From Spirochaetia bacterium (lineage in GTDB: Bacteria; Spirochaetota; Spirochaetia; DSM-2461), in assembly GCA_963668315.1 (NCBI GenBank), contig OY764216.1, forward strand, positions 960,001 through 1,024,000: a stretch of DNA of 64,000 nt. Reading direction: 5' to 3'. Of this stretch, positions 1 to 30,508 are shown piece by piece. Position 1 is the first letter of the stretch; each line of letters opens with the position of its first letter. The notes under the pieces were generated by a model. The model made no database searches. It was not told where the DNA came from and saw only the letters and a program-made list of their open reading frames with translations. The translations under genes and the position numbers were made by a program.

Positions 1-2
1 AT

Positions 3-1028: not shown

Positions 1029-1046
1029 TTCCCCGTGTGTTGAGAG

Positions 1047-1081
1047 AAAGCTTCCGGTTTCTACCCGGAAGCTTTTTTTTT
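1047..1081 (+). terminator. Rho-independent terminator
   Basis: AAAGCTTCCGG-tttctac-CCGGAAGCTTT followed by a T run, directly after the oxidoreductase stop. Confidence 0.9.
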
Positions 1082-1121
1082 GCATTTTTCCGCAAATTTC
1101 TGAACTTTTTCCTGGGAAATC

Positions 1122-1155
1122 TAAAAAATGTCCAAGTCTTGATAAAATACGTACA
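1122..1155 (+). promoter_or_regulatory. Candidate activator site: 13-bp imperfect direct repeat at 21-bp spacing
   Basis: TAAAAAATGTCCA (1122-1134) and TAAAATACGTACA (1143-1155) lie just upstream of a poor -35 and a CATAAT -10 (1179-1184). Confidence 0.5.
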
Positions 1156-1208
1156 TCTCCTTATGGGAAAAACGGGCTCATAATTGAATCATCTTTAAGG
1201 AGGTGTTT

Positions 1209-2492: not shown

Positions 2493-2518
2493 AAACGATA
2501 ACCCAAAACCAACTATAA

Positions 2519-2540
2519 CCCGGTCCCTTCTGGGGCCGGG
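2519..2540 (+). other. Intercistronic GC-rich hairpin after the binding-protein gene
   Basis: CCCGGTCCC-ttct-GGGGCCGGG, with no strong U tract. Confidence 0.6.
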
Positions 2541-2563
2541 ATTCTTAAGGATTTAATGACGTT

Positions 2564-3469
2564 ATGAGTAAAACTGCCCAAAACATCGTAACTCAGCGTA
2601 AAAAAAAGGAATATCTGGCGGCTTTTCTTTTCCTGCTGCCTAACCTGGTCGGATTTGTCCTTTTTATGCTGGTCCCCTCATTGGGATCTTTCATCATGGG
2701 ATTTACCGATTGGAATCTGCTCACATCCCCTACTTTTGTGGGACTGGCCAATTTCAAGGAACTCCTTGCTGACGATCTATTCTGGAAAACCCTGGTAAAT
2801 ACGGTATATTATACATTTATCAAGGTGCCTCTCAATTTGTTCCTTTCCCTGCTGCTGGCCATACTGTTAAATAGACAACTACGCGGGCGGGACCTTTTCA
2901 GGGTGATGACTTTTCTCCCCATGGTCTGTTCCTCCGTTTCCATAGCCCTTATCTGGAAGCCCCTCATGGAGTCCACCGATCAGGGTCTTCTCAACCATTT
3001 TCTCGGCTGGTTTCATCTGGGACCCTATCCGTGGATCAATTCCATACCCTGGGCCATGCCCAGTGTAATTCTCGTGGGTATCTGGAAAGAGCTGGGTTAC
3101 TTCATGGTCATTTTCCTCGCCGGGCTTCAGGGCATTTCCAAGTCCTATTACGAAGCGGCGGAAATCGACGGGGCAGGGCCGATAAGCGAGTTCGTCCATA
3201 TCACGCTCCCCCTGATTTCACCGACCACGTTCTTCGTCTTTGTCACGTCGATCATCGGATCCTTCCAGATCTTCGACCTGACATCGGTACTCACCGCAGG
3301 AGGACCGGGTAACGCGACGAATACCATGGTAATGTATATCTATCAGGCCGGTTTCCGGTTCTTCCGCATGGGATACGCCTCGGCACTCGCCTTAGTCCTG
3401 TTTATCGTGATCTTCATTTTCACCATGATTCAGGACCGCGCTTCCAAAAAATGGGTTCATTACGAATAG
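2564..3469 (+). CDS. Carbohydrate ABC transporter permease
   Basis: Multiple TM segments; EAA loop YYEAAEIDGAG. Confidence 0.95.
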   Translation: MSKTAQNIVTQRKKKEYLAAFLFLLPNLVGFVLFMLVPSLGSFIMGFTDWNLLTSPTFVGLANFKELLADDLFWKTLVNTVYYTFIKVPLNLFLSLLLAILLNRQLRGRDLFRVMTFLPMVCSSVSIALIWKPLMESTDQGLLNHFLGWFHLGPYPWINSIPWAMPSVILVGIWKELGYFMVIFLAGLQGISKSYYEAAEIDGAGPISEFVHITLPLISPTTFFVFVTSIIGSFQIFDLTSVLTAGGPGNATNTMVMYIYQAGFRFFRMGYASALALVLFIVIFIFTMIQDRASKKWVHYE

Positions 3470-3478
3470 GAGTCTGAC

Positions 3479-4309
3479 ATGATAGGAAAATCCAAACCCC
3501 AGACCATAGTTCTGAGTTATGTATTCTTAATATTTCTGTTTTTCGTCATGTTCGTCCCCTTCTGGTGGACCGTGGCGACATCGTTCAAAACCTTTGATGA
3601 GGTGTACACCCGTTCCTACTCGCTGATCCCGAACCAGTTCAAGCTGACGAACTACAAGGCGGTCTTCGCGAGTACCCCCTTCGGCATGTACTTCCTCAAT
3701 ACGGTCAAGGTTTCCGCCGCCGTCTGTCTCGGTACGCTCCTGACATCGGCCATGGCGGCTTACGCCTTCTCACGGCTGGAATTCCCCGGAAGGGACGGGC
3801 TGTTCTTCGTCTATCTCTCCACACTGATGATTCCCCGGCAGGTCGTGCTGGTTCCGGACTTCATCCTCTTCAAATGGATGGGCCTTCTGAACACCCACTG
3901 GACCCTTGTCTTTACGGGTATTTTCACCGCCTACGGAACCTTTCTGCTCAGGCAGTTTTTCTTCGGGATTCCCCGGGAACTGGAAGAAGCGGCCGTTATG
4001 GACGGATACGGCTATTTCAGCCGATTCACCAAAATCGTGCTTCCCCTGGCCAAACCGGCTCTGGCGACGCTGTTCATTTTCACCCTGCTCCAGATCTGGA
4101 ACGAGTACCTCTACGCTCTGGTATTCATCAATTCCGACGTGAAGAGAACCCTGACCCTGGGACTGTCCCTGCTAACGGGAGATATGGATGTTCAGTGGAA
4201 CCTCGTCATGGCGGCCACGACCATCTCCATACTGCCGATTGTGGCTGTCTACCTGAGCGCCCAGAGGTTTTTTATCGAAGGCATTGCCTTGACGGGTGTG
4301 AAGGGATAA
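3479..4309 (+). CDS. Carbohydrate ABC transporter permease
   Basis: Multiple TM segments; EAA loop ELEEAAVMDGYG. Confidence 0.95.
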   Translation: MIGKSKPQTIVLSYVFLIFLFFVMFVPFWWTVATSFKTFDEVYTRSYSLIPNQFKLTNYKAVFASTPFGMYFLNTVKVSAAVCLGTLLTSAMAAYAFSRLEFPGRDGLFFVYLSTLMIPRQVVLVPDFILFKWMGLLNTHWTLVFTGIFTAYGTFLLRQFFFGIPRELEEAAVMDGYGYFSRFTKIVLPLAKPALATLFIFTLLQIWNEYLYALVFINSDVKRTLTLGLSLLTGDMDVQWNLVMAATTISILPIVAVYLSAQRFFIEGIALTGVKG

Positions 4310-4312
4310 AAT
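4284..4312 (+). promoter_or_regulatory. Internal sigma70-type promoter, probably leaderless, for the two-component pair
   Basis: TTGCCT-N17-TAAAAT, then 6 nt, then ATG 4319; no SD sequence. Confidence 0.65.
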
Positions 4313-4318
4313 AGTAGT

Positions 4319-5062
4319 ATGCTGCGTGTCATGATAATAGAAGACGAGCCCTCTGCCATGGACCGGTTTTCCGGTTATGTGGAAAGCTACGGCGATTGTC
4401 TGAATGTCACGGCACGGGCCTATACTTCCGAAGAGGGCTGGGATCAGTTTCTTGTGGAAAAGCCGGATATCATCTTCACCGATATCCGGATTCCCGGCGA
4501 GAACGGCCTGGTCCTGGCCGACCGGTTCAGAAAAGCGGGCTGGAAGGGGGAGCTTGTCATCATCAGCGGTTATGACGACTTTTCCTACGCCCAGAAAGCG
4601 TTGAAGATCTCGGCGGCCGATTACCTTTTGAAACCTGTCTTCCAGGAGGATTTCAACCGCATTCTCGACCAGCTTATGGAGAGGATGCGGGAAGAGTCGG
4701 TCCTGGAAGAGGAAGACGACGACATGGTCTGTCCCGAACATATTCTGCGGGCGAAGCAGTATGTGGAGATACATCTGGAAGAGGATATCTCCCTGACCGA
4801 TGCGGCGGAGTACGCCTTTGTCTCCTCCTCCTACTTGAGTTCGAGTTTTCATAAATTTCTCGGCGTCACCTTTATCGAATATATCAGGAATCTGAGAATC
4901 GATAAGGCCAAGGAAATGCTCAAATCCTCCCGCCTCACCCTAAGGGAGATAGGGGAAAAATGCGGTCTGGCCGATCCATCCTATTTCCACAGGTCTTTCA
5001 AGAAGACGACGGGAGTCTCTCCGAGCCGCTTTCGGAAGGAGTTTCACAGGGGAACCGCTTGA
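4319..5062 (+). CDS. YesN-like response regulator (receiver domain + AraC HTH)
   Basis: Receiver motifs IIEDE, FTDIRIPG and YLLKP; AraC C-terminus SYFHRSFKKTTGVSPSRFR. Confidence 0.92.
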   Translation: MLRVMIIEDEPSAMDRFSGYVESYGDCLNVTARAYTSEEGWDQFLVEKPDIIFTDIRIPGENGLVLADRFRKAGWKGELVIISGYDDFSYAQKALKISAADYLLKPVFQEDFNRILDQLMERMREESVLEEEDDDMVCPEHILRAKQYVEIHLEEDISLTDAAEYAFVSSSYLSSSFHKFLGVTFIEYIRNLRIDKAKEMLKSSRLTLREIGEKCGLADPSYFHRSFKKTTGVSPSRFRKEFHRGTA

Positions 5063-6675
5063 GACGGACCCCGCCCTTTTTCCACCGCCTCCTGATCTTC
5101 AGCATCTGTCTCATTACGGCCTGCATTCTCCTTTTCAGTTTCATTACCTACCGCAGAATCTCCCGGGATCTTAACAGTCTCAGCAGGCAGATGATGCTTA
5201 ACCAGGTCCTTTCCGTTGAGAACAGCTATACCTCCCTGGTCGATGAGATGTCCGGCCGGCTGAATTCCCTCATGACTATGATCAAACGGGAGGCGATTGA
5301 GGGGGAGAGAGTCCGTGAGGTTCTGGACAGCATGATGGCCTCTTTCCCCGAATACAGGCATATCTGGATCATAAGAAGAAACGGGGAGCTCCTTAGCGAT
5401 TCCGGTACGAACGGGGACTATCTTTCCCAGACGGACTGGTGGAAGGAATTCAAGGACAGGGCGGCCATTGACGGAAACCCCGATTACCAGGGCCAGTACG
5501 TCGTCGCTCCCTTTCCCGGCGTTCCCTACAAGGACGCCATGGGGCTGAACACAATTCTCCCGGTCTCCTTTTTCCTGCTCTCCAGTATCAATACCGCCGG
5601 TGTGGCCTTTACCGAAATGGATGTCACGACGGTGCTGCAGAGAACTAAGCTCATCAGCGAACTGCTCAGCGGTACCAATTCCTATCCCATTAATATTTCT
5701 CTCTATGACAAATCGGGCCGTCTTCTGGAGACATCGGGCAATCTGTTTCCCGTGGTGGCCGATAATCCGGCCGGCGGCAGCGTCCCGCTCCTTGTGCCTT
5801 TCGAAGACTTGCGGTACTCCTCGGGAGCCGTGTTCGTCCAGGATGATGAGCGGGTATCCGTCTTTTCCCGCAATACGACGCTGGGCCTGGTATTCGCCGG
5901 CTCCCTGCCCAAGGATGCCATTAACAGCAATGCCCGCAGGGCCGCCCTCTACATACTCGTTATCGGGGTTTTCTGCCTGTTGTCCGTTCTGGGGCTGGGA
6001 CTGCTCCTGCTGGGGACCTATTACAGGATGAAGCACTACGAAAAGGAGCAGGCCTCGGCCCGGTTCCAAAGTCTTCAGAACAAAATGAATCCACACTTCC
6101 TGTTCAACACTCTGGACAGTCTGGTCGGAGTGGCGGAGCAGCGTGATTTCACCATGCTCATCAGCATGCTGCGCCATCTCTCCTATATCCTCCACATGAA
6201 TCTGAGGATAACCAGGGACATCATTCCCCTGTCCGATGAGATCCGCTATATAGAGAGCTATGTGGCTCTGCAGAAAATCCGATATAAAGAGGGCTTCTCC
6301 TTTGAGCTGAAGCTGCCGGAAAGCTGCGATGAACTGGAGATCCTCCGGTTCTGCCTGCAGCCCGTTGTGGAGAACTGCTTTGTTCACGGCGTCTCCCTGC
6401 ACAGAGGCTTTGTGGCAGTCAAAATGGCTCTGGAGAGAAGGGACAACTATCTCTGCTGCGACGTCACAAATACCTGTTCCTCCGCCACGGCTGAGACGTT
6501 GGAGAAGCTGCGGGCCCAGCTGTCCGGAGACGGGCAGGGGACGAAGGAGAACCGATTGGGGCTCTTAAGCATTCATAAAAGGCTGCGGATTCTTTACGGC
6601 GATGAATACGGCATCGAGTTACCCCCCCAGAGAGACGTCTTTCACGTTCGCATCTATATGCCCGTTCTCTGCTGA
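5059..6675 (+). CDS. YesM/LytS-type sensor histidine kinase
   Basis: Two TM segments; LQNKMNPHFLFNTLD and LQPVVENCFVHG motifs. TTG start inferred from a 4-nt overlap with the upstream stop (TTGA). Confidence 0.88.
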   Translation: MRRTPPFFHRLLIFSICLITACILLFSFITYRRISRDLNSLSRQMMLNQVLSVENSYTSLVDEMSGRLNSLMTMIKREAIEGERVREVLDSMMASFPEYRHIWIIRRNGELLSDSGTNGDYLSQTDWWKEFKDRAAIDGNPDYQGQYVVAPFPGVPYKDAMGLNTILPVSFFLLSSINTAGVAFTEMDVTTVLQRTKLISELLSGTNSYPINISLYDKSGRLLETSGNLFPVVADNPAGGSVPLLVPFEDLRYSSGAVFVQDDERVSVFSRNTTLGLVFAGSLPKDAINSNARRAALYILVIGVFCLLSVLGLGLLLLGTYYRMKHYEKEQASARFQSLQNKMNPHFLFNTLDSLVGVAEQRDFTMLISMLRHLSYILHMNLRITRDIIPLSDEIRYIESYVALQKIRYKEGFSFELKLPESCDELEILRFCLQPVVENCFVHGVSLHRGFVAVKMALERRDNYLCCDVTNTCSSATAETLEKLRAQLSGDGQGTKENRLGLLSIHKRLRILYGDEYGIELPPQRDVFHVRIYMPVLC

Positions 6676-6799
6676 TTTACCCCCCGGCCTTTCTCTGCGA
6701 TGACAATCCTTTTTTTACTTGGGCTATCCTGTGTCAGTTTGATGAACCGGCGCCCTTTCCTCTTAACGGGACATCCGTATTGATGTAATATTTGTAATT

Positions 6800-7426
6800 A
6801 TGAATAAACCGATTGAACAGGATTTACATATCCATACAAACTACTCCTACGGCGATTCCGCCATTGAGCCCCAGCAGACATTAGATCTGATCAAATCCCT
6901 GGATCATGCCCGGATAACCGGCATAAGCGATCATTTCGAATATGTGACAGAGAACTTTATTGAGTACCGTGACGATGTGCATGGCCATGGATTCTGGTGC
7001 GGATGCGAGATTAATCTCTCAAGCGACGTTCCCCGGGCCCTGGAGCTTCCCTTTGATTACTATATATTTCACTGCCGCAACGAAGAGTCCGAATACCGCG
7101 GTGCCGAGAAGCTTCTCGAATCGGGAAAACCCCTTATCATCTCCCACCCCATCGCCATAGGGGCGGATCTGGCCAAGGTTCCCACCGGATGCTTCATCGA
7201 AGTTAACAACCGCTATATCTGGAAGGCGGAGGACTACAGGAGCTACTATGCCCCCCATCTGGACCGGTTCCGTTTTGTCCTGGGGTCTGATGCGCATAAG
7301 CCCAACTGGCTTAACCATGTGGTCGCCCAGTACGCGGCGGAGCAGATGGGTATTGTTCCCGCTCTGGTTTTCAATGCTCCCTATGTCTCCGCCGAAAAGA
7401 GGGAACCCGCCGGGGTAAAGGCGTAA
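6800..7426 (+). CDS. PHP-domain phosphoesterase
   Basis: PHP metal motifs DLHIHT, ISDH and GSDAH. Confidence 0.85.
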   Translation: MNKPIEQDLHIHTNYSYGDSAIEPQQTLDLIKSLDHARITGISDHFEYVTENFIEYRDDVHGHGFWCGCEINLSSDVPRALELPFDYYIFHCRNEESEYRGAEKLLESGKPLIISHPIAIGADLAKVPTGCFIEVNNRYIWKAEDYRSYYAPHLDRFRFVLGSDAHKPNWLNHVVAQYAAEQMGIVPALVFNAPYVSAEKREPAGVKA

Positions 7427-15218: not shown

Positions 15219-15701
15219 ATGACCTTATTGTATATAACGCTGGCTCTTTGCCTTGTTTCCTTTCTCGTCGACAGAGAGAAGACCCTGGCCGGAATAAAAA
15301 AGGGTTTGAAGAAGTTCCTGCGGGTTCTTCCTGTTTTTCTCATCATGATAATCGTAACATCCCTGGTCCTGACTCTGCTCCCCCGTGAGGTCATATCCCG
15401 TTATCTTTCGGGGGAAAACCGGTTTCTGGCCGCTCTGGCGGGGCTGGCGTGCGGGTCCGTGGCCCTTCTGCCCGGTTTTATCGCCTTTCCCCTGGGGGGA
15501 ATGCTCAGAGAGCAGGGCGTGCCCTATTTCGTTATCGCCGCGTTTACCTCCAGTCTGATGATGGTGGGGGTTCTGACTTTTCCCGTGGAAAAGACCTTTT
15601 TCGGAACCCGTTTCGCCCTGCTCAGGAATCTGGCCGGGGTTGTCATTGCGGCGGCGGTGGCCCTGGTCGCGGGATTGTTTTTCGGGGAGATTCTGCCGTG
15701 A
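15219..15701 (+). CDS. Predicted permease subunit (DUF318/ArsP-like half)
   Basis: Hydrophobic protein with PGFIAFPL and FALLRN motifs. Confidence 0.7.
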   Translation: MTLLYITLALCLVSFLVDREKTLAGIKKGLKKFLRVLPVFLIMIIVTSLVLTLLPREVISRYLSGENRFLAALAGLACGSVALLPGFIAFPLGGMLREQGVPYFVIAAFTSSLMMVGVLTFPVEKTFFGTRFALLRNLAGVVIAAAVALVAGLFFGEILP

Positions 15702-16204
15702 AAAAGAAAAATGCGGCCTCCTGGATTTTTCTGGCGGCTTTTGGTCTGTTTGCCCTTCTCTCTTTCCTCTTTGACTGGAACTGGGGAATGGAGGCGTCCC
15801 GGTCATTCGCCGGTAATTTCAAGCAGATGGCGGCGCTTCTTCCCTGCGCCTTTATTCTGATCGGGCTCTTCGAGGTATGGGTAAAGAGGGAGACTATTGA
15901 GAAGCATCTGGGCGAAGGGGCGGGCTGGAAAAGTTATCTGTGGGTGATTCTTCTGGGCGGCCTGACCCTGGGACCCATGCTGACGGCCCTGCCCGTGGCG
16001 TCGGCCCTGTGGAAGAAGGGGGCCGCCCTGAGCGTGGTCATTACCTATCTGGGAGCGGCGGCGGTGTGCCGGATTCCCATGACGATTTTCGAAGCATCTT
16101 TTCTGGGAATTCCCTTTACGGTGATCCGTTATGCCACGGCCCTCCCTCTGGTCGTGGTCAGTTCCCTGGTGCTGAGCCGTTATCTGAAGGGGCGTCTTCC
16201 CTGA
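15698..16204 (+). CDS. Predicted permease subunit (DUF318/ArsP-like half)
   Basis: GTG start overlaps the upstream TGA; GLFEVWV, LPVASALWKKGA and IPMTIFEASFLG motifs. Confidence 0.7.
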   Translation: MKKKNAASWIFLAAFGLFALLSFLFDWNWGMEASRSFAGNFKQMAALLPCAFILIGLFEVWVKRETIEKHLGEGAGWKSYLWVILLGGLTLGPMLTALPVASALWKKGAALSVVITYLGAAAVCRIPMTIFEASFLGIPFTVIRYATALPLVVVSSLVLSRYLKGRLP

Positions 16205-16832
16205 GCTGTTTTCTCCAGGTTATCAGCCCCCGTACGGCCAGAATCAGAAGTATCACATAGAGAAGGGAGAGGAATTTCACTTCCTTGACCCAGTAAAGCC
16301 CTATGGCAATCACATCCACCACAATCCAGATCATCCAGTTTTCCGTCCGTTTGCGGGCCAGGAGGAACATGGCGGCGAAGCTGGAAATCGTTGTAAAGGC
16401 ATCCAGATAGGGAAAATCGGCGGCCAGGGGAAAAAGGGCGGGAAGGATGAGGTGAATCCGGGCCATGAGATAACCGCTCAGGGCCGATACGATAAGGATT
16501 CCCCCGAGCCAGCATAAATTGTTTCCCACGCTGCCCGCTTTAACGGTTATTTCCCTCTCTTCTCCCCGGTCACGCATCCAGTACCACCAGCCGTAGGCGC
16601 TGGCTCCCAGGTAGTAGATCTGCTCCAGGCAGTCCGAATAGAGCTGGATCTGATAAAAGAGCATCCCGTAGAGGATCACCGAAGCGATTCCCACGGGCCA
16701 GTTGAGCATTCTCTTCTGCGATATGAGCCACACCGACCAGAGGTAAAGAATCGTACCGACGAATTCGATATAGCTCATGGGGTACCCCATGAAGATGAAA
16801 AATATACTGTCTATGGAAAAGAAATTTACCAT
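16158..16832 (-). CDS. pnuC: Nicotinamide riboside transporter PnuC
   Basis: NWPVGI, EQIYY, YGWWYW, LDAFTT and ENWMIWIVVD motifs; adjacent to nadR. Confidence 0.9.
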   Translation of the reverse strand: MVNFFSIDSIFFIFMGYPMSYIEFVGTILYLWSVWLISQKRMLNWPVGIASVILYGMLFYQIQLYSDCLEQIYYLGASAYGWWYWMRDRGEEREITVKAGSVGNNLCWLGGILIVSALSGYLMARIHLILPALFPLAADFPYLDAFTTISSFAAMFLLARKRTENWMIWIVVDVIAIGLYWVKEVKFLSLLYVILLILAVRGLITWRKQLREDAPSDNGSAPGN

Positions 16833-17821
16833 GTGTGATTCTCCTTGTAATGATTCAGTTCCCGGGCGACCCGATCCATCCTTTCGCTCAGACTGCCTTC
16901 CAGAAGGACATAGGGGATTTCTCTCCTGTCCAGATCCCGGCGAAAACTCCTTTGGAACAGGCTCCTATGGACTTCTCCGGAACGGTCCTCCGTATCGTCA
17001 TAGGGAATATCGTCGCCGCAGAGAAAATGAAGGTCGTACCGGTCCCGGCAGTCATCGGCCAGAAGCTCCAGTTCCTTTACAGCCGATCCGTGATAATCCA
17101 GGGCGAAATGATAAGTAGACAGGGCTCCCGTGTCAACAAAGAAGTAATCCCCCCCTATATAGGCCTCTTCTACTTCCTTTTTCCGGTGAATCCGGGCGAT
17201 TTCCAGGAGCTGTTCACCGGTCAGGCGGCGATTCCTCTGGTGCTTTTCCCAATATTCCCGGCCGTACTCGGCCATCCAGGGACAGGTGTAATGTTCAGCC
17301 AGAGTCCGGGCCAGGGTGGTCTTCCCCGTACTGGGGGCTCCGTGAAATACGGCCTTGATTATATGGTCAAAGTAAACCGGCGGGGGTAGGAATTCCCGAA
17401 AAGCCGGGGGATTCTCCCGTATCAAGGTTGCCGAAACGGGGATATGGATTCTCCGGGGATCCACCTGGCGGTTTCGGCACTTAAGGGCGCGGCTCATATG
17501 TTCCCCGTAGGGTTCGGAGGAGTAGAAGCTGTGAATGGGGACTCCCCCCAGAAGCTTGAGAACGTACTCCTCCTGGCATTTCATTATCTCCGGTGAGTAG
17601 CCCGTCTCCTCCGGTCCGTCCGGGGCCGTAATTACCTCGACCCGATGGGGGAAGCACTCCCCTATCCAGGCCGCCCTTTTATGAAGCGGTATAGACGTAA
17701 GTCTGCTTTGGTAAATTATCACCTTAACCAGGTCCATCTCCCTAAGGGCCGTTTCGATGACATAGGCATGGCCCCGATGGAAGGGAGCGTATTTACCCAG
17801 GCATAATCCGATTTTTCTCAT
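16826..17821 (-). CDS. nadR: NadR-like bifunctional NMN adenylyltransferase / ribosylnicotinamide kinase, without HTH
   Basis: N-terminal GKYAPFHRGH (HxGH) and VSATLIR; C-terminal P-loop GAPSTGKTT and EYGREYW. Confidence 0.88.
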   Translation of the reverse strand: MRKIGLCLGKYAPFHRGHAYVIETALREMDLVKVIIYQSRLTSIPLHKRAAWIGECFPHRVEVITAPDGPEETGYSPEIMKCQEEYVLKLLGGVPIHSFYSSEPYGEHMSRALKCRNRQVDPRRIHIPVSATLIRENPPAFREFLPPPVYFDHIIKAVFHGAPSTGKTTLARTLAEHYTCPWMAEYGREYWEKHQRNRRLTGEQLLEIARIHRKKEVEEAYIGGDYFFVDTGALSTYHFALDYHGSAVKELELLADDCRDRYDLHFLCGDDIPYDDTEDRSGEVHRSLFQRSFRRDLDRREIPYVLLEGSLSERMDRVARELNHYKENHTW

Positions 17822-19173
17822 AAACTGTCGGGGACCTCCGTTTGGAAGGTTATGATTTTCCTCTCCCCGTCCAGGCCGATGTTATCGCCCCTCTTCAGGG
17901 GAAGGTTTTGGGCACCGTACCCCTTGAGTACAATCGCGAGAGAGGAGAGAACTTCCTCTTCCTTTCCCGTGTTTGCGGGCAGTCCTACTTCCAGTGAGTA
18001 ATCTACCCGCTGCACTATTCTATAGGCAGGGAGGGCCAGGGGCGCCAGGGCTCGGGAAAAATCCACCGTATTGATCCATCCCCCTTGGGGCAGGGGAAAA
18101 CGTACCGGCTTACGGCCCTGGAAATCTGCCAGATATAACCTGTCCCCATCCCTTCGAATCCGGCAGAAATCTCCCGTTCGGTAGCGGATAAGGGGTAGGT
18201 AGGGATTATTGCCCCCGCTCAGGGCCAGCTCACCCCACTCTCCGTCGGGAAGGGAGCGGTCCTCCTTGGGATCGAGGATTTCCAGGAAAAGGTCGGGGCG
18301 CATGGATTGGGTCATCCCTTTTCTTGTCCAGGCGATGTTGCGGCACTCGGTCATGGAATAGACGTCAAACAGGGGGCACTGAAAGTGGGCTTCCAGCCTA
18401 TCGGCCAGTCCGGAAGAGAGGGTCATGGCACTGGAGATCATGGCTTGGGGCCTCAGGGGGATTTCCCTTTCCATCAGGGCGGCGAAGGCCAGGGGATCCC
18501 CGGTCAGCAGGGAGGGATTGAGTTCTGTCAAATACTTCCGGCAGTCCTGGGGATCTCTCCACTGGCCGGGATGGAGGTTGACCTTTATAAAACCGGCCCC
18601 GTCCAGATAGGACGAAACAGAGGCGTATGTCAGTGTTTCCAGCTGGCTGCAGATCAGGGCTATGGCGGTTTTCCCCGGGCCTCTTGCCAGGCTGATCCCT
18701 TCGGTTGAGAGCATTTTCTCTACCTGCGGCAGCCAGGAGGAGGCTTCTTCCGGGCCGAAAATCACATCCAGCGGGGCTCCCGTTGTACCGGAGGTGGCGT
18801 AGCAGAGGATATCATCGAGGGGGGCACTGTCTCTTACGAAATTCCAAGGCGCCCTTCGCAGGTCCTCCCGGCTAAAGGAGGGGGCCCGGAAGAAATCCGA
18901 CGGATAATCCCGGTAAGCGGGAACGTCGGAAAGGACATCTTTGTAGAACCCTTCTATGAAGTCTTCCGCAGCAAAATTCCCCCTTCCGTCCATATCTTTC
19001 CTGTAGACATTCAGGTTTTCCAGATGTTTCCCGGTCAGCCGGTCTCCCGACTTGAAATTGTAACGGGGAGAGTTGGGATGCTGGCGCAGAGCGTTAAGCC
19101 AATTTAGATTTTCAGCAGCGGGGAACCGTTCCTCATCGGTGAGAACCGGCATAATCTCTTTACTCTCTGCCAT
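17818..19173 (-). CDS. Adenylate-forming enzyme (PaaK/CapK-like, ANL superfamily)
   Basis: TSGTTG, YSMTE and YRTGD...GR core adenylation motifs. Confidence 0.85.
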   Translation of the reverse strand: MAESKEIMPVLTDEERFPAAENLNWLNALRQHPNSPRYNFKSGDRLTGKHLENLNVYRKDMDGRGNFAAEDFIEGFYKDVLSDVPAYRDYPSDFFRAPSFSREDLRRAPWNFVRDSAPLDDILCYATSGTTGAPLDVIFGPEEASSWLPQVEKMLSTEGISLARGPGKTAIALICSQLETLTYASVSSYLDGAGFIKVNLHPGQWRDPQDCRKYLTELNPSLLTGDPLAFAALMEREIPLRPQAMISSAMTLSSGLADRLEAHFQCPLFDVYSMTECRNIAWTRKGMTQSMRPDLFLEILDPKEDRSLPDGEWGELALSGGNNPYLPLIRYRTGDFCRIRRDGDRLYLADFQGRKPVRFPLPQGGWINTVDFSRALAPLALPAYRIVQRVDYSLEVGLPANTGKEEEVLSSLAIVLKGYGAQNLPLKRGDNIGLDGERKIITFQTEVPDSL

Positions 19174-19744
19174 AGGTATTGGCCGCTTCCCGGGCTCTTT
19201 TTTCCCGCATCTTCCTTTTTATCTCCTCCGCCCGGCTGTGGGCCTGGCGGCTCTGCTCTTCCAGTTCGGCGCGATAGAGAGTATCCAGGGCCTTAAGCCT
19301 GTCTTCCCCTTCGCGGGGCGTTTCTCCCCGGGGGAACAGACCGCACCAGTGAAGGGCCAGGCGGCAAAGCTCTTCCCGGCGGGCCGGGTTTCCGATCATC
19401 TGGGGAGGAGAGACAAGGCGGACTAACCTGTCCATATGGTCGTACCCCCGGGAAAACCCCGGGCCCAGCTCTTCTCTTCCGTGAAACCAGGGGTGGGAGT
19501 AGAGGTAGGCCAGGACCTGCAGCCCCTGCCAGTGGCCGATCTCCCAGTTTTCCCAGCGTTTTTCCAGGCGGGATGCCAGTTCATCGGGTATTTCTACTTC
19601 CTGGAAAATAAAGAGGTCCTTTACTATCGCCAGGCTGTGAACTTTGGATAGGGAGTGGGAAGGGAAGGGGAGAGGGTTTTCCAGAAACAGTGCCGGGCAC
19701 TCGCTTAGGTAATTAAGCAACTCTTCAAGGGTCGGGCTGTTCAT
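19160..19744 (-). CDS. Hypothetical protein of the MoxR operon
   Basis: Overlaps both neighbours; ends in a charged coiled-coil (REAANTYGRE). Confidence 0.75.
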   Translation of the reverse strand: MNSPTLEELLNYLSECPALFLENPLPFPSHSLSKVHSLAIVKDLFIFQEVEIPDELASRLEKRWENWEIGHWQGLQVLAYLYSHPWFHGREELGPGFSRGYDHMDRLVRLVSPPQMIGNPARREELCRLALHWCGLFPRGETPREGEDRLKALDTLYRAELEEQSRQAHSRAEEIKRKMREKRAREAANTYGRE

Positions 19745-21489
19745 CCTTTTCCTCCAAATTTACCGGCGGCGAATTTTTTCGCGAACAGGGAAAGCTCTTC
19801 GTCATTGGAAACATAGTAAATCGTCCATCCCTCTTTTCGCAGAATATCCGCCTCCTTTTTATGATACTCCGGCCGGGAATAGAGGACCAGTGACCCGCCG
19901 CCCCCGCAATTCTCCATAGCCTTTTTGGCTACATCCCAGGTTTTCTCTCCCTCTCCATACCAACCGCCTCCCAGCATGGCGAAAATATCGTCATCGGTAA
20001 GGAGAAGGATATGGGTTTTTCTTTTGCGGGGGCGGGAGAAGTCCCTTCGCAGCCGGGGGATGCCAAAGGCGTATCCGGTCCCGAGATAGGATACAAGGAC
20101 ATCCATGATTTTCCGGGAGTCCCGTACAAAGCTCTCCGTTTCCATGAAAGAGCCCGGTTCCCCCGAAAGGGTTACTTTTACACGGGCTCCCCCGCGCAGG
20201 GCGGATTGGGCGATGATGGTCCCCGCCAATACGGGCCAGCTGAAGTTAATGGCCGGATTGCCCATAGAACCGGAACAGTCGATTCCTATGTAAAGATCCA
20301 AGGGGGTATAGGCCAGGGTATCTCCCTCGTCGGGGGCAAAGACCCGCTTTACCGTGGTCATCCCGGGAATGACCTCGGGGCTTCTTATGAGGGAGCCGAA
20401 CCAGTCTATTTCCCCCGGATTATCCCCCAGGTCCCACGATTCGAGCCCTTCGGGAATGACCCCTTCGGTCTGGGGAACCTTCTCTTTGGGGAAGGGAATG
20501 AGATAGGGGGCGGAAATTTGTTTGTAGTATCGGGCCAGGGCTTTGTGTATATCCAGTCCCGCCGGGTCGAGCTGCCGTAAATAGTCCAGATAGTCCCGGG
20601 GGGATTTGTATCTCTGCCGGGGCCCTTCCCCGGAGGATGACTTCTCCGGTATCCTACCGGCCAGGTCTTCTCCCTCAACAGGTCCAAGGGGCTCATCGTC
20701 AAGGTCTCCCGGGGGGGCTTCCAAGTCCGCCCCGACCCCGGAAGAGCCTTCGGAAGCTTTCAAGGCATCCATTATGAGAGTCCAGGTTTCGGCTTTACCC
20801 TCTTCCTCCCACAGATAGGGGTAGAACAGAATCGCATAGGAGTAGGCCCCTTCCAGCCAATCCCCCGAGTAGGAGCGTATAATATGAGCCCCCATTTCGC
20901 TGTCCCTATCCAGCTGTTCCCCCCTGTCCTCACCGGGGCGGACTCGGGTCAGTTCCCCCGGCTTAAGGGAGTAGAGCTTCTCGTAAATTCCCAGGTAAAG
21001 GTTCCAGACGGGGGAGGGATTCGCTCTTTTCTCCCTTTTCTGGATCTTTTTGTAGATATCGTCCATGCGAAGGCCCCGGCGGCTCTGGAGATGGTAGTTT
21101 ATCAGATGATCGGCAAAGAGATTCATAATTCGGGGGGCATGCTCCTCCTTTTCGGTCAAGGCTTTTCTTACCAGGGTGAGCATGCGCCCGTTATCGGTGA
21201 GATTGGCCGGCACATAAACGTGGTGGCCAATCTCATGGGCCAGAATCTCCAGGGCATAGTCGTCCAGGCCGTACTGCTTTATGAGCGAGCCATCCAGGAC
21301 GATGCGGTGATCCTTGAGCCTGATCATGGCAAAGCTGCCCTCCAGTCCCTGTTCCTTCGCTTCCTCCCGGGAAAAGCACCAGTGGGGAGGGCGCATCATT
21401 ACCAAGTGGCTCCACTGCCGCAGGGCCTCTTCCCATCGGTCGTCCCACATGCTGCGCATTTCATCCATCAGTTTATCACTTCTACCCAC
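19741..21489 (-). CDS. HEXXH metallopeptidase-like domain + C-terminal VWA domain protein
   Basis: ILAHEIGHH...NLFADHLIN, an acidic Pro/Gly linker, then MIDAS IDCSGSM...T...LLTDDD. The start may be ATG 21468. Confidence 0.85.
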   Translation of the reverse strand: MGRSDKLMDEMRSMWDDRWEEALRQWSHLVMMRPPHWCFSREEAKEQGLEGSFAMIRLKDHRIVLDGSLIKQYGLDDYALEILAHEIGHHVYVPANLTDNGRMLTLVRKALTEKEEHAPRIMNLFADHLINYHLQSRRGLRMDDIYKKIQKREKRANPSPVWNLYLGIYEKLYSLKPGELTRVRPGEDRGEQLDRDSEMGAHIIRSYSGDWLEGAYSYAILFYPYLWEEEGKAETWTLIMDALKASEGSSGVGADLEAPPGDLDDEPLGPVEGEDLAGRIPEKSSSGEGPRQRYKSPRDYLDYLRQLDPAGLDIHKALARYYKQISAPYLIPFPKEKVPQTEGVIPEGLESWDLGDNPGEIDWFGSLIRSPEVIPGMTTVKRVFAPDEGDTLAYTPLDLYIGIDCSGSMGNPAINFSWPVLAGTIIAQSALRGGARVKVTLSGEPGSFMETESFVRDSRKIMDVLVSYLGTGYAFGIPRLRRDFSRPRKRKTHILLLTDDDIFAMLGGGWYGEGEKTWDVAKKAMENCGGGGSLVLYSRPEYHKKEADILRKEGWTIYYVSNDEELSLFAKKFAAGKFGGKG

Positions 21490-22373
21490 AGGTAATGGCT
21501 ATCCTCCTTCAAATGGATTTTCAACTTTCCCTTCTCTTTTCCGCCGGGAAGGGTAAAGAGCCTGTCCTCATGGAAGGGAAAGGGAATAAGCCGGCTGCCG
21601 AAGGAGTCGGAAAAGAGCAGAAAAGCCCTCCTTTGATCATGGAGGATGAGTCCGGTGGAGCCCAGGGCGTCCGTCCCTTCCAGGCGGCGGCAGTGGGGAG
21701 GAAGGAGAAAAGGCCCGCCGTATCCGGCAAATCCGCCCAGCCGGCCCCCGGTATAGTCTCCGGGGATAGCCCAGGGATTTTCCCGGGCCGATTCCAATTG
21801 GCTGCGCCCATAGGGAAAAAGGGAGGCCAACTGCCTGTCGGAAAGCAGCTCGCATCCATCCAGAGCTGGAATGCGCCATTCGGCCATTCCCAATGTCCAG
21901 GCGGCCAATCGGCCCAGGGCAAAGGCCTCTTCCTTCCGTTCGCATACCATAAGGGGGGCTGCCATTTGATCGAGCCAGTCCCGCCGGGTCCGGGCATCGG
22001 GGAGAGAACGAATCGCACCGTCCCAGGAAGTAAGAAAGGAGCGTAATTCACCGGAAGGGAGGGCCTCTTTCCGGTTGAGAAAAGGGGCCAGGAGCAGCCA
22101 ACCCTTAAGAAAATCCCCATTAAGCATCATCTCTCCGCCCCGAACCAGAGGGGGGAGGGTCGTTTCAATACCGTGGATCATCAGGTTGAGCAGATGGTCC
22201 GATTCTCCGTAAGCTTCATAGAGAGCGGTGAGCAGAGGTGTCAGGTGCTTACCCAAATCGGCATCGGCCAAACGGGGATGGGAGAAAAGCAGCCCGTCCA
22301 GAACCGGCTGGATGTTCTCCTCTTCCCGGGCGAGAAAAGAGGCGAGGCCCCCCTCTATTTCCACTGGAGCCAC
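21468..22373 (-). CDS. Hypothetical protein of the MoxR operon
   Basis: Overlaps both neighbours; Gly-rich motif GGFAGYGGPFLLPP. Confidence 0.72.
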   Translation of the reverse strand: MAPVEIEGGLASFLAREEENIQPVLDGLLFSHPRLADADLGKHLTPLLTALYEAYGESDHLLNLMIHGIETTLPPLVRGGEMMLNGDFLKGWLLLAPFLNRKEALPSGELRSFLTSWDGAIRSLPDARTRRDWLDQMAAPLMVCERKEEAFALGRLAAWTLGMAEWRIPALDGCELLSDRQLASLFPYGRSQLESARENPWAIPGDYTGGRLGGFAGYGGPFLLPPHCRRLEGTDALGSTGLILHDQRRAFLLFSDSFGSRLIPFPFHEDRLFTLPGGKEKGKLKIHLKEDSHYLWVEVIN

Positions 22374-23932
22374 CTCTTGTAGTTCGTATAGCGCTGGTGG
22401 AAGTACTTCAATTTGAGAATATCGTCGGCCATATGGCCGTACAGTTTTCCGCTTCGGCTCATTTCGCTGAGGATCTGCTCAATCTGGAACATTCTCTTCT
22501 CCACTTCCGAGATGGAGAGACCCTCCATCCCTTTCTCAAAAAGTTCCTCCATCTTGGCCACCGGGTCGTATTCGTCCAGTTTCAACCGGGCGTACTCCTG
22601 GCAGGAGAGGTCGAAGCATTTTCGTATCCAGGTTATCCGGTCAACCCGGTAAGGGGCGTTCTCCTCCTTCTCGAAGAAGGGCGATTCAAGATGGGGAGAG
22701 AGGGCGTCGTGCAGGACGAAGGGCAGAATCTGCCGGATATCTTCCAATTCCACCTCATCCAGCCCTCTGAAGTAGGCCATGGCCTTGGCGTAGAGCAGCA
22801 GGGTCATGAGCTTTCTTACGGAAAGGCCGTTTTTGGCCTGGCTTCCCAGATCGCGGTTCATATCCTTGCCGCTTTCAAGTTCCATCAGTGATTGAAAGTC
22901 CAGGCCGGAAAGCTTGGCCGTGTCCTTTGTCATATAGTCCAGCTTCGTCGATGCCGGTTCGAAAAACTCAAACTGCCGGGCGAAAAATTCGATTTTGCGG
23001 CGGAGCGGGGCGGGAATGGCCACGGCCAGGATCTCCTTATAGAGGGTGTCCAGCTCCTCATCGGTAAAGATGATCTCCCGGGGAATGTTCTTTTCCGGCT
23101 TGTACCCCGTTTCTATTCTCCTTTGGAGATCCTCTACGAAGCGGGTGTTAAAGTGGAGAGCCCGGATAACCACATCGATTCTGTCTTTGAGCGCCTCAAT
23201 GACCTGATAGGTCCCGCCCCCGGCGTCATCGTTGGCCGTCAAATACCAGGCCGCTTCGGGGCACTCGTAGATCTGATCCATAATTTCCGCGTAGTTGTCC
23301 GCCAGAACGGTGAGCAGGGCCGATTGGGTCCTGGTGGGAATCCGGTTGTATTCGTCTATGATCTTCACTTTCATCTCCAGCCACTTTCTCCAGGAGATGC
23401 GTATCTGCGAAGGATCCTCCGATTTCATAAGATCCCCCGGGAAGGGATGGCCGAGCAGGTCGGCCACGGTCATCTGGGGCTGGCCGTGCTGAATGGCCCG
23501 CTTCATATCCTTGAGGTCGTATCCCGCCAGGAGCCCCATGAGAATGGAGGTGGCCGTTTTTCCCCTTCCCGGGCCTCCCACGATCAGGCAGCGCTTGCGC
23601 ACCGCCAGGGTCAGCAGGGGAATCAGGACAAAGCTGGAGTAGCACTGGCCGGTGGGAAGATCGACCTGAACCTTGGAGTCCCCGAAAAAGTAGGACTGGG
23701 GAGCCTTTTCGTTATACTCTATATCGTAGAAAGGGCTGATAATGGCCGTATTGGTAATCCAGAAGTAGGCCTGGCGGAGTTTTTCATCCAGGCCGGTTCT
23801 CTCCTCGCCTTTTTCGCTTTCCGAAGGATTTTCAAAAAGATCCTTTATTCGGAATGGGGTCCTCTTGGCGCCCCGGTCCACCGGGTTGGTGGGGGCTGCC
23901 GGAATATGGTGGGATTGGTCTGACCGCTGCAT
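22355..23932 (-). CDS. MoxR-like AAA+ ATPase
   Basis: Walker A GGPGRGKT, Walker B IIDEYNR, TQSALL, TAN and EALKDR; AAGGAG SD. Confidence 0.9.
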   Translation of the reverse strand: MQRSDQSHHIPAAPTNPVDRGAKRTPFRIKDLFENPSESEKGEERTGLDEKLRQAYFWITNTAIISPFYDIEYNEKAPQSYFFGDSKVQVDLPTGQCYSSFVLIPLLTLAVRKRCLIVGGPGRGKTATSILMGLLAGYDLKDMKRAIQHGQPQMTVADLLGHPFPGDLMKSEDPSQIRISWRKWLEMKVKIIDEYNRIPTRTQSALLTVLADNYAEIMDQIYECPEAAWYLTANDDAGGGTYQVIEALKDRIDVVIRALHFNTRFVEDLQRRIETGYKPEKNIPREIIFTDEELDTLYKEILAVAIPAPLRRKIEFFARQFEFFEPASTKLDYMTKDTAKLSGLDFQSLMELESGKDMNRDLGSQAKNGLSVRKLMTLLLYAKAMAYFRGLDEVELEDIRQILPFVLHDALSPHLESPFFEKEENAPYRVDRITWIRKCFDLSCQEYARLKLDEYDPVAKMEELFEKGMEGLSISEVEKRMFQIEQILSEMSRSGKLYGHMADDILKLKYFHQRYTNYKRWLQWK

Positions 23933-24104
23933 GGTAATCGCTCCTTAGGATGATGGCATAATATAGGACATTTGCCTTATTAATCAAACTTAAATACCGG
24001 TGATTCCTAAGGGGCAGGCAAGAATTTACTCTGATAGAAGAATTGAAAGGGTACGCTAAATAAGTTTTTCTTGACTATTATCAGGTATATTGTATCTTCA
24101 ATTG

Positions 24105-27930: not shown

Positions 27931-29307
27931 ATGAAACCCTTTTCCCATGTGAATATTTCCCCGCCCATGCTGGCGAATCTCAAAAAGATCGGTTACGACA
28001 CCATGACTCCCATTCAGGAAGGGGCGATTCCCCCCATTCTCAAGGGAAAGGACGTTTTGGCCCAGGCGAAGACGGGAAGCGGCAAGACGGCGGCTTTCGG
28101 AATAGGACTCCTTGAGCGGATGGATACGGAGCGGTACAGGGTCCAGGCCCTCGTGCTCTGTCCCACCCGGGAACTGTCGGAGCAGGTTGCTTCGGAGATA
28201 CGCCGGCTGGCCGGGTTTCGCCACAACATCAAGGTTTTGAATATTACCGGGGGGCTCCCTCTGCGGAAGCAGGAGCACTCCCTTTCCCATCAGGCCCATA
28301 TCGTGGTGGGGACGCCCGGACGGATTAATAAGCTTTTGAAGCGCGGTTCCCTGGTACCCGACGAGATCAGAACCCTGGTGCTGGACGAGGCGGACCGGAT
28401 GCTGGATATGGGGTTCATAGATACTATTCGGGAGATCATCGCCCATGTCCCCGAAAATCGGCAGACCCTCTGTTTTTCCGCAACCTTCCCCGAGGATATC
28501 CGGGCGCTCACCCGGGACATCATGAAGGATCCCCGGGAGATTACGGTGGATGCCATTCATGCCGAGGGAGTGATTGAGCAGTCGTTCTTCCGGGTGAATG
28601 CCGAGGAGAGAGGCCGGGCGGTGGTAAATCTGATACGGGAGCACCGGCCGGAATCGACGGTCGTGTTCTGCAACACCAAAGATGCCTGCCGCCGGATTCA
28701 GGAGGAGCTGGAACGTTACGGGATGCACTCCCTGGCCCTTCACGGTGATCTGGAGCAGAAGGAGCGGAACGAAGTGCTGATCCGCTTTTCCAACGGGAGC
28801 AGCCCCGTGCTGGTGGCTACCGACGTGGCGGCCCGGGGGCTGGATATCGGGGACCTGGCCTGCGTTATCAACTACAATCTGCCCTTTGAGACGGAAACCT
28901 ACATCCACCGCATAGGCCGGACGGGAAGGGCGGGGAAGACGGGGCTGGCTTTTTCCCTTATGAAGCCGGATGAGCAGTTCCGCCTGGACCGTATCAATGA
29001 ACTGACCGGCGAAAACTATGCCGCCCTGCCCATGGACTGCACCGTCCCGGAGGATTTTCCCGGACTCAAGCCTGCCATGGTGACCCTGTCTATCAACGGG
29101 GGACGGAAGAATAAGATCAGCGCCGGGGATATTCTGGGAGCCCTGACCGCGGAGGGCGGTCTGAAAGGGAGCGACGTGGGGAAGATTGACCGGCTGGATT
29201 ACATTAGCTTTGTGGCGGTGAAGAGGGAGTTTTCCGATAGGGCCCTGAAGATGCTCTCAAAGGGAGCGGTCAAAGGGAAGACTTTCAGGGCGAGGACTCA
29301 CCGGTAG
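27931..29307 (+). CDS. dbpA: ATP-dependent RNA helicase DbpA
   Basis: AKTGSGKT, PTREL, DEAD, SAT and HRIGRTGR; C-terminal DbpA RNA-binding domain (GGRKNKISAGDILGAL). Confidence 0.93.
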   Translation: MKPFSHVNISPPMLANLKKIGYDTMTPIQEGAIPPILKGKDVLAQAKTGSGKTAAFGIGLLERMDTERYRVQALVLCPTRELSEQVASEIRRLAGFRHNIKVLNITGGLPLRKQEHSLSHQAHIVVGTPGRINKLLKRGSLVPDEIRTLVLDEADRMLDMGFIDTIREIIAHVPENRQTLCFSATFPEDIRALTRDIMKDPREITVDAIHAEGVIEQSFFRVNAEERGRAVVNLIREHRPESTVVFCNTKDACRRIQEELERYGMHSLALHGDLEQKERNEVLIRFSNGSSPVLVATDVAARGLDIGDLACVINYNLPFETETYIHRIGRTGRAGKTGLAFSLMKPDEQFRLDRINELTGENYAALPMDCTVPEDFPGLKPAMVTLSINGGRKNKISAGDILGALTAEGGLKGSDVGKIDRLDYISFVAVKREFSDRALKMLSKGAVKGKTFRARTHR

Positions 29308-30508
29308 GGTTTTTCTTCTTTTTCGGCTTTTTGATTTTGAAGGGCCGCGTATCGAGAACGGACGGAGGCAGTTCCTTTGCCGGGGCGAATCCTTCTTCTA
29401 TCCTGCGGGGTATGACCTGCTGCGTCAGCCGCTCGATTGTCTTCAGTTCGTCAAATTCCTCGGCGCACACGAGGGATATGGCCACGCCGGGGCGGTCCGC
29501 CCTTCCGGTACGGCCTATGCGGTGGATGTACTCCTCTTTCACCCGGGGCAGATCATAGTTGATGACCAGGGGAAGCCGGCTGATATCCAGGCCGCGGGAG
29601 GCCAGGTCAGTGGCTATGAGAATATTCGCATCCCCCGATTTAAACTCCTTCAGCGCTGTTGTTCGGGCTCCCTGGCTTTTGTCCCCATGGATGGCGTTCC
29701 CCTTGATCCCCTTTTTCTCAAGCCGCCGGACAAGATGATCCGCCCCGTTTTTCGTTCCCGTGAAGATAAGAATCTTTTGGTCGCCGTACCGGCGGATCAG
29801 CTCTATGAGTAGGGCCGCCTTTTTCTCCCGGTCCACCGGGTAAACCCACTGCTCCACGGGCTCCGCCGTTTTTCTTTCCGGCTCGATATGAATCTCCAGG
29901 GGGTCCGCCAGCAGCTTCGTGGCAAGGGCTTTTACTTCCGAAGGCAGGGTTGCGGAGAAGAGGAGAGTCTGGGGCTTTCCCGGGAGAAGGGAGAGAATAC
30001 GCTGTACTTCGCGGGTAAAGCCCATGCTGAGTATGCGGTCCATCTCATCCAGAATCAGCATCTCCAGATTCGGGAAAAGGACGCCGTTCTTGTCATAAAT
30101 ATCCAGAAGTCTGCCGGGGGTAGCCACGAGGATCTCCACGCCCCGGTGCAGTTTCTGGAGCTGGGGGTTGATTTTTACCCCGCCGAATACAGCTTCGGTC
30201 CGTAGGGGCAGGTATTTCCCGTAGGCGTTGAGGGCATCGGCCGTCTGGCAGGCCAGTTCCCGGGTGGGTACCAGGATAAGGGCTCTGATGCGGCGGGCTC
30301 CCGCCCGGGGGCGTTTACTGAGTTTCTGCAGCAGGGGCAGGGAGAAGGCCGCCGTTTTCCCCGTTCCCGTCTGGGATGTCGCCAGGATATCCCGGCCGGC
30401 GAGGATGGGGGGGATCGCCTGCTCCTGAATGGGAGTAGGAACGGCGTATCCCCTTTTATTCAAGGCTTTCTTCAGAGGCTCGCCCAGGGGCAGTTCGTTA
30501 AAGTACAT
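29285..30508 (-). CDS. DEAD-box RNA helicase (RhlE-like)
   Basis: QTGTGKT, PTRELA, motif II DEMD, SAT, HRIGRTGR and a basic tail. Confidence 0.9.
   Translation of the reverse strand: MYFNELPLGEPLKKALNKRGYAVPTPIQEQAIPPILAGRDILATSQTGTGKTAAFSLPLLQKLSKRPRAGARRIRALILVPTRELACQTADALNAYGKYLPLRTEAVFGGVKINPQLQKLHRGVEILVATPGRLLDIYDKNGVLFPNLEMLILDEMDRILSMGFTREVQRILSLLPGKPQTLLFSATLPSEVKALATKLLADPLEIHIEPERKTAEPVEQWVYPVDREKKAALLIELIRRYGDQKILIFTGTKNGADHLVRRLEKKGIKGNAIHGDKSQGARTTALKEFKSGDANILIATDLASRGLDISRLPLVINYDLPRVKEEYIHRIGRTGRADRPGVAISLVCAEEFDELKTIERLTQQVIPRRIEEGFAPAKELPPSVLDTRPFKIKKPKKKKNPTGESSP

Follow-up and report, generated by a model that had tools for sequence, protein, structure and literature searches.

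The 64,000-nucleotide window analysed here (positions 960,001 to 1,024,000 of contig OY764216.1, GenBank assembly GCA_963668315.1, from a Spirochaetia bacterium) carries on its minus strand a seven-gene operon that is a real and widespread variant of the MoxR-VWA systems, set apart by an unmatched candidate client protein and by a tight link to the salvage enzyme NadR, and with a function that is putative as read from sequence. Five genes make up its core: they encode a MoxR-type AAA+ ATPase, a protein of no assigned family (U2), a protein that joins an HEXXH-bearing domain to a VWA domain (HEXXH-VWA), a small helical protein (U4) and a PaaK-like adenylate-forming (ANL) ligase. Genes for NadR and for the transporter PnuC follow. 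The reading that we favour, at a probability of roughly 35%, is that the ligase, fed by NadR, loads U4 or an acceptor held by U4, and that the MoxR-VWA pair grips a glutamate at the end of U4 to remodel or release the complex. A cycle in which the ligase covalently couples the folded, glutamate-tailed U4 either to target proteins or to a NadR-made pyridine nucleotide, and the MoxR/zincin-VWA motor then recognizes, pulls and uncouples it, is possible if doubtful.

The seven-gene arrangement is not a product of chance, because the same gene order recurs in other genomes. In a phylum sample of 301 genomes the ATPase was matched in 21, the source genome included, and the contiguous order MoxR-U2-HEXXH/VWA-U4-ligase is found in 18 of the 20 other spirochaete carriers, 13 of the 18 belonging to one genus; of the two exceptions, one lies on a contig that ends early and the other, genome G018, has the core split into MoxR-U2-VWA and U4-ligase-pnuC. 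Among metagenome loci (the best 80 of 591, with presence counted only where a locus was long enough) U2 is present in 47/52, the VWA gene in 31/35, U4 in 27/32 and the ligase in 24/30. The core order, which the initial annotation had described from a single genome, is thus conserved beyond it, in most spirochaete carriers and most long metagenome loci, and the view that the seven genes act as one functional unit is supported. The relatives include, by their source names, saprophytic Leptospira species, Blastocatellia, Riflebacteria, Desulfobacterales and Anaerolineales; a single-sequence scan of species genomes gave one locus. The spread is patchy, as only 2 of 61 close relatives and none of three same-genus genomes have the core. 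Many genomes contain masked bases, which makes any single gene absence uncertain; in genus g80, all four non-carriers checked show a clean empty site containing no N, which rules out masking there, G023 and other masked genomes being unchecked.

NadR (16826..17821, minus strand, 331 residues) is of the nicotinamide mononucleotide (NMN) adenylyltransferase plus ribosylnicotinamide kinase type and lacks a helix-turn-helix domain. It has an HRGH motif at residues 15-18 and, further on, the P-loop GAPSTGKT at 161-168; it matches Pfam AAA_28 (107.9 bits) and CTP_transf_like (24.6 bits) and aligns with NadRs in the PDB at E-values from 7.8e-27 to 2.1e-11, while its 141 bits against TIGR01526 fall below the cut-off of 341 and its substrate is assumed. 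The PnuC-family transporter (16158..16832, minus strand, 224 residues) scores 173.2 bits against PF04973 and 103.2 bits against TIGR01528, above the cut-off of 42.45. In the phylum sample both proteins occur in all 21 carriers, NadR being present in 51 of the 301 genomes overall (26 of the other 30 are from one family) and PnuC in 75. A second sample, of 114 genomes of family f17 that partly overlap the first, has U4 and the ligase in the same 43 genomes; the NadR kinase domain is found in every one of these 43 carriers as against 2 of the 71 non-carriers, and PnuC in 37 carriers and 13 non-carriers. The attachment of nadR and pnuC that was first noticed in the window is therefore not peculiar to the source genome: NadR is a tight partner of the core and PnuC a looser one.

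It could be argued that nadR and pnuC serve ordinary salvage and happen to lie beside an unrelated five-gene chaperone operon. NadR-PnuC occurs without the core in 26 genomes of family f22 and in G023 and G175, and of 24 well-flanked metagenome loci only 11 have either gene nearby (6 have both), nadR lying near 22 and pnuC near 15 of all 80 loci in several orders and orientations. This explanation seems highly improbable to us and is largely refuted, as nadR has joined the core upstream, downstream, divergently and convergently, NadR is missing from all but those two same-family non-carriers, and it is kept where the genes are unlinked, for example in G290, G369, G373, G422, G423, G241, G276 and G018. 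G373 keeps MoxR and HEXXH-VWA, U4, the ligase, NadR and PnuC even though the motor genes and the four others are spread over five distinct sites. Salvage is not the sole source of nicotinamide adenine dinucleotide (NAD) in the source genome, because it has NadA and NadD of the de novo pathway; no match to NAPRTase was found in that genome, and a second, weak PnuC-like match (36 bits) lies at G000:C1:104234-104680. A locus elsewhere (L125:6802-9187) has an NrtR-nadR-pnuC operon whose NadR is 52% identical to that of the window, on a contig that stops after pnuC.

U4 (19160..19744, minus strand) is modelled with a predicted local distance difference test score (pLDDT) of 94.9 as a helical domain followed by a 39-residue helix (155-193) at the C-terminus, and it ends in the acidic sequence YGRE. 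The initial annotation had proposed a Foldseek comparison of the two unassigned proteins; on the U4 side this was carried out and fold searches gave no match, the best Z being 4.8, which does not by itself prove a new fold. A sequence search of the PDB with U4 also gave no match and a search of the ESM Atlas nothing usable. What stands out is the tail. Among 47 proteins (14 near-duplicate loci and a frameshifted fragment having been set aside), the last residue is Glu in 44 and Asp in one, and two end in Glu-Trp, so that an acid is last or penultimate in 47 of 47; the most frequent final residue reaches only 14-38% in the remaining six genes. The tail is written with each of the six codons for Arg, with either codon for Glu and with any of the three stops, and it persists where no ligase gene follows. 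Selection on it is therefore selection on the protein, and the same two observations speak against the RE tail being a mere reflection of an overlapping gene or of a ribosome-binding site. Exchange of Glu for Asp and extension by Trp would fit recognition of the tail through its side chain. An idea that tail variants track two classes of MIDAS loop was dropped, since TGE tails occur with the other class in L157 and L158.

The HEXXH-VWA protein (19741..21489, minus strand, 582 residues) is the candidate to do the recognizing. Its model (pLDDT 88.1) has a helix, three strands and a helical domain bearing the HEXXH motif, then an acidic disordered linker (268-290) and the VWA domain, whose fold is matched at Z 15.3 with a root-mean-square deviation of 3.0 over 165 aligned residues; the top Foldseek match of the model is the VWA domain of NorD (E 7.9e-5). 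[quoted passage not shown] Both are well kept among 70 family members: H85 in 69, E86 in 68, H89 in 69 and D127 in all 70, and D404, S406, S408 and D499 in 68-70, while the MIDAS threonine position is Thr in 54 and Tyr in 11, and those 11 carry Thr two residues earlier. None of the 70 matches the CobT Pfam family, a profile of the peptidase domain found nothing in the PDB, and Peptidase_M48 is matched in 10 of the 70, below the cut-off only; the match of the protein encoded in the window to peptidase M48 is likewise weak. The layout, as modelled, is CobT/NorD-like, with a zincin or M48-like peptidase role that is putative. In one further sequence, P0061 (1114 residues), a complete HEXXH-VWA protein is fused with an RNA ligase domain of the T4 Rnl1 type (Pfam E 1.1e-37); it is a single sequence and possibly a large-phage gene or a chimera.

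The motor itself (22355..23932, minus strand, 525 residues) has conserved N- and C-terminal extensions around Walker A GPGRGKT at 119-126 and Walker B DE at 193-194, both as read from the translation. Its Walker A and B, sensor and lid match MoxR models, and the motifs are invariant in 31 sequences. Pfam gives AAA_3 at 30 bits (cut-off 27) and AAA_lid_2 at 26.2 bits (cut-off 22.7), and the profile matches PDB entry 2r44 at E 1.8e-8. Relatives at E<=1e-30 number 3143 among 8000 scored, and identity among the best 120 matches is 57-65%, the sequence itself and one near-identical record apart. In L068:10001-13337 a truncated MoxR abuts a truncated ligase, either through deletion of the middle genes or through an assembly error, and in genus g125 (L036, L152, L153, L155, L160 and L161) the gene immediately upstream of MoxR encodes another VWA protein, one that has a CsgG-like domain. 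U2 (21468..22373, minus strand, 301 residues) matches nothing in Pfam, NCBIfam or PDB sequences, and the ESM Atlas returned a single lead for it, at 0.76. Its conserved W-x-x-G and GF-x-GFGG motifs can also be found, by eye, N-terminal to HEXXH-VWA in the 927-residue protein P0018; U2 is likely an adaptor of the VWA protein.

A complex prediction for HEXXH-VWA and U4 with Mg and Zn scored 0.35 (runs of 0.01, 0.51 and 0.35), the best of three controls scoring 0.00; the runs share at least 40% of contacts, with partner pLDDT of at least 78. The mark used was reached by 116 of 157 solved pairs and 2 of 215 mismatched ones and fits the present job only roughly; at scores of 0.60 or under it was passed by 18 of the 157 solved pairs and by both mismatches. 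The prediction lends weak support to binding of U4 by HEXXH-VWA. In NorQD and other MoxR partners, according to the accessible text of PMC13036017, the target supplies the sixth ligand of the MIDAS metal, and it is tempting to picture the tail of U4 in that position. NadR, fed by PnuC, would supply a pyridine nucleotide; the ligase would activate its carboxylate with ATP and attach it either to U4 or to some acceptor that U4 holds; the MoxR motor would grip the terminal glutamate of U4 through the metal site of the VWA domain and remodel the complex; and the HEXXH site might then release or trim the product. What the data establish is the gene set with its order and co-occurrence, the folds of HEXXH-VWA and U4 as modelled, and the conserved tail; the chemistry and purpose of the scheme are inferences.

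A number of observations weigh against this scheme. The usual products of NadR, NMN and NAD, have no carboxylate, and deamidated forms would be needed. NadR also looks like an ordinary salvage enzyme, because it aligns with solved NadRs and because its 52% relative in G175 lies behind an NrtR regulator; relatives of 51-52% identity occur in both G023 and G175, two genomes in which no core was detected, and the system-linked NadRs (13 near-duplicate loci omitted) form no single supported clade, so that a dedicated NadR lineage is not supported. Kin genomes are not independent, and 28 of the 43 f17 carriers are one genus with nadR inside the cassette, which amounts to one event. The identity of the ligase to characterized enzymes is too low to give its substrate. 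The MIDAS, which the initial annotation had called intact, has Tyr473 at the threonine position, with Thr471 nearby, whereas the Walker, HEXXH, ANL, HxGH and P-loop motifs listed with it are all present. In G018 and G359 it is the ligase, and not the motor, that U4 accompanies, and in L076 U4 and the ligase occur together in duplicate. Finally, weak passes in complex prediction such as ours are more often wrong than right unless the pairing was likely beforehand, and the prediction returned no interface, so that the tail site is a candidate only.

The joint movement and duplication of U4 and its adjacent ligase would be expected if U4 were a tag comparable to Pup, with the ligase adenylating its terminal glutamate and joining it to target proteins or to a nucleotide, MoxR recognizing the tagged targets, the HEXXH site removing the tag, and NadR providing an acceptor or recycling NMN. 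The accessible literature describes Pup as a protein with a GGE end that becomes attached to lysines, and the terminal glutamates of U4, some in TGE, SGE or YGE tails, likewise stand behind a long charged helix; the near-invariant HEXXH and D127 would suit a deconjugase, and a longer, fused U4 was not found among 8000 scored candidates, which is weak evidence. We nevertheless place this, the main rival to our reading, on the unlikely side, as U4 forms a folded domain of 194 residues, unlike a tag that is short and disordered, its final residue is Trp in two cases and Asp in one, small aryl acids are what the nearest ligases act on, and in G373 U4 is encoded far from the ligase. For 31 loci the distances between trees, admittedly a crude measure, give partial correlations for U4 of 0.54 with U2, 0.49 with VWA and only 0.07 with the ligase. 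The likeness to pupylation (a small protein with a glutamate end after a helix, a ligase, an AAA+ ATPase and a candidate deconjugase) does not extend to homology in any part: the ligase is of the ANL and not the glutamine synthetase fold, no Pfam or NCBIfam match to Pup, PafA/Dop or proteasome families was found in any of the seven proteins, and no proteasome or PafA-like gene occurs in the loci examined. The protein tag-and-process system that the initial annotation had envisaged is thus still possible, with the terminal glutamate of U4 as the candidate tag, even if a folded U4 speaks against it.

The ligase (17818..19173, minus strand, 451 residues) forms its own subfamily, with an N-terminal extension. 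It has the motif TSGTTG at 127-132 and matches Pfam AMP-binding (PF00501) at 38.5 bits (cut-off 29.9), and it lies far below every NCBIfam cut-off, TIGR02155 (PaaK) giving 40.9 of 646 bits. The nearest solved structures are PaaK and the coenzyme A (CoA)-independent NatL2/AjiA1, by name aryl-acid enzymes, of which NatL2 activates an aryl acid by adenylation and makes an ester, CoA not being required (PMC7204872, in its accessible part); unlike in the contexts of PaaK and NatL2, no phenylacetate or benzoxazole genes lie near the ligase. The ligases of L108, L119 and L120 have a short C-terminus seemingly without the usual terminal lysine motif, and the U4 tails paired with them read YGE.

Enzymes that come and go beside the core raise the possibility of a small-molecule route, in which PnuC and NadR, together with the ligase and with tailoring enzymes where these are present, yield a nucleoside or cofactor in modified form and the MoxR-VWA pair merely matures or reactivates a ligase-U4 enzyme, as in NorQD and CobST, with no covalent protein product. 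The CobT/NorD-like architecture would suit this, and the accessories vary as tailoring steps might. A dedicated radical SAM family occurs at 8 of the 80 metagenome loci (L053, L066, L076, L093, L097, L108, L112 and L117) and a second at 2 (L071 and L072), both below all NCBIfam cut-offs tested; a PhyH-like 2-oxoglutarate-Fe(II) oxygenase, which as a query matched no PDB sequence, is present or absent together with the cassette in genus g80; and the adenylyltransferase (NMNAT) half of nadR stands alone after the ligase in three loci (L053:17550-18053, L077:17175-17639 and L104:17956-18420). Still, a pure scaffold would not need the near-invariant HEXXH-D site, most loci, like the source genome, lack the accessory enzymes, and no PaaK-like ligase or NadR is known to need such a motor; we therefore regard this route as unlikely. 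Two loci show the accessories in place: in L025:14680-15534 the convergent oxygenase gene overlaps the end of nadR, and L076:10423-19732 runs from the core through nadR and a radical SAM gene to a second U4-ligase pair and then pnuC.

Among the closest characterized systems, CobS-CobT(-CobN) shares the layout of the motor, with a MoxR-type ATPase beside a partner that has an M48-like N-domain, a long linker and a MIDAS VWA domain; in the accessible part of the source (10.64898/2026.07.21.739949), the N-domain of CobT is M48C-like and the last helices of CobN lie by its MIDAS. From end to end, the HEXXH-VWA model can be aligned with CobT-like proteins of phages, at low TM-scores of 0.15-0.29. 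Unlike CobST, the operon has no CobN or cobalamin context and no match to CobT in Pfam, keeps the HEXXH-D site and has four to five extra partner genes. NorQ-NorD, with CbbQ-CbbO and RavA-ViaA, likewise pairs a MoxR ATPase with a MIDAS VWA protein, and the target of NorQ-NorD gives an acidic ligand (PMC13036017, accessible text); in this group there is no counterpart to the 525-residue ATPase with its extensions, the peptidase motif, U2, U4, the ligase or NadR, and none of the known clients NorB, CobN and Rubisco was found among the scanned neighbours of our loci. The jumbo-phage pair of MoxR and metallopeptidase-vWA, proposed for virion assembly in the accessible part of PMC7824862, has the same two-protein layout; however, the ATPase family was not found in viral contigs, where the VWA profile gave one partial match. 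MoxR-vWA modules with transglutaminase-like peptidases are also known (PMC3495828, accessible part), and further background is given in the accessible parts of PMC7221760 and 10.64898/2026.10.09.757910. We found no description of this gene set in the literature, in a search that did not cover supplements, subscription journals or older MoxR classification papers.

The initial annotation had suggested that the coupled salvage genes refill NAD during phage attack. MoxR-vWA modules do occur in predicted conflict systems (PMC7159879, main text), where MoxR and vWA share one operon with peptidase domains; phages use PnuC and NadR (NARP3) against NAD-depleting defence (PMC13464706, accessible part). 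The patchy spread of the operon and its clean presence or absence as a cassette would also suit an anti-phage or conflict system. Against this, NARP3 serves the phage and not the host, and while it has the same two families in the same domain order, NadR-PnuC is tied here to a chromosomal five-gene core (de novo NAD genes were checked in the source genome only). The main text of PMC7159879 contains no NadR, AMP-binding or adenylat- term, and neither the third component of those systems (VMAP, iSTAND/STAND, FtsH or beta-propeller) nor variable effectors are conserved beside 100 loci, a remote likeness of the unassigned U2 to such a component being conceivable. The operon has housekeeping neighbours and, in one genus, a fixed chromosomal site; its ATPase evolves slowly, with high sequence conservation and no variable effector slot, and was not found in the plasmids and viral contigs searched; and no NAD-consuming domain was recognized. 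A PADLOC scan of the components gave three weak P-loop matches only (E 0.0048-0.075), none convincing. With de novo NAD genes also in the genome, the suggestion of NAD refill finds no backing here, and we consider a defence role quite improbable.

Most MoxR-VWA pairs have no known client, and this operon offers a candidate, U4, in the same locus, with the motor tied to a ligase and NadR across many lineages that include cultured saprophytic Leptospira species. One can ask here what it is that a VWA adaptor with a peptidase domain takes hold of, and for what reason NadR is retained by hosts able to make NAD de novo. A covalent product, should there be one, would amount to a new modification of proteins or a new cofactor derived from NAD. 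A conjugation cycle, if true, would make this the first MoxR system to bring along both a ligase and an eraser, and would put NAD precursors to a new use.

All seven reading frames lie on the minus strand where the initial annotation had placed them, each overlapping its neighbour: the six junctions overlap by 19, 22, 4, 14, 4 and 7 bases if the longest starts are assumed. For HEXXH-VWA the likelier start is Met8, as in its 94% relative P0012, and the upstream stop is still overlapped. The operon stretch has a GC content of 0.54-0.58, inside the range of the window, and lies between a DsbA-like gene that diverges from it and a pair of convergent permease genes. The intergenic region on its 5' side (23933..24089, minus strand) has a ribosome-binding-like AAGGAG and weak promoter-like matches; those of 9 of 12 consensus bases, at 23987-23958, are at chance level (8 found, 4.5 +/- 1.8 expected). 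A better promoter-like site, TTGACA-17-TATCAT (11/12) at 17136-17108 on the minus strand, lies inside nadR some 280 bases before pnuC; it is also present in L001 and sits in conserved coding sequence. Elsewhere in the window, two ArsP-like permease halves lie at 15219-16204, the second overlapping the end of pnuC on the opposite strand, and two tandem genes at 27931-30508 resemble DEAD-box helicases by motif. The closest relative locus, L001 (Oceanispirochaeta sp.), has all seven genes at 83-94% identity; several ankyrin-repeat genes flank its operon (1-6958 and 16223-21683), as does a small gene pair that by eye is presumably CcdA/CcdB-like.

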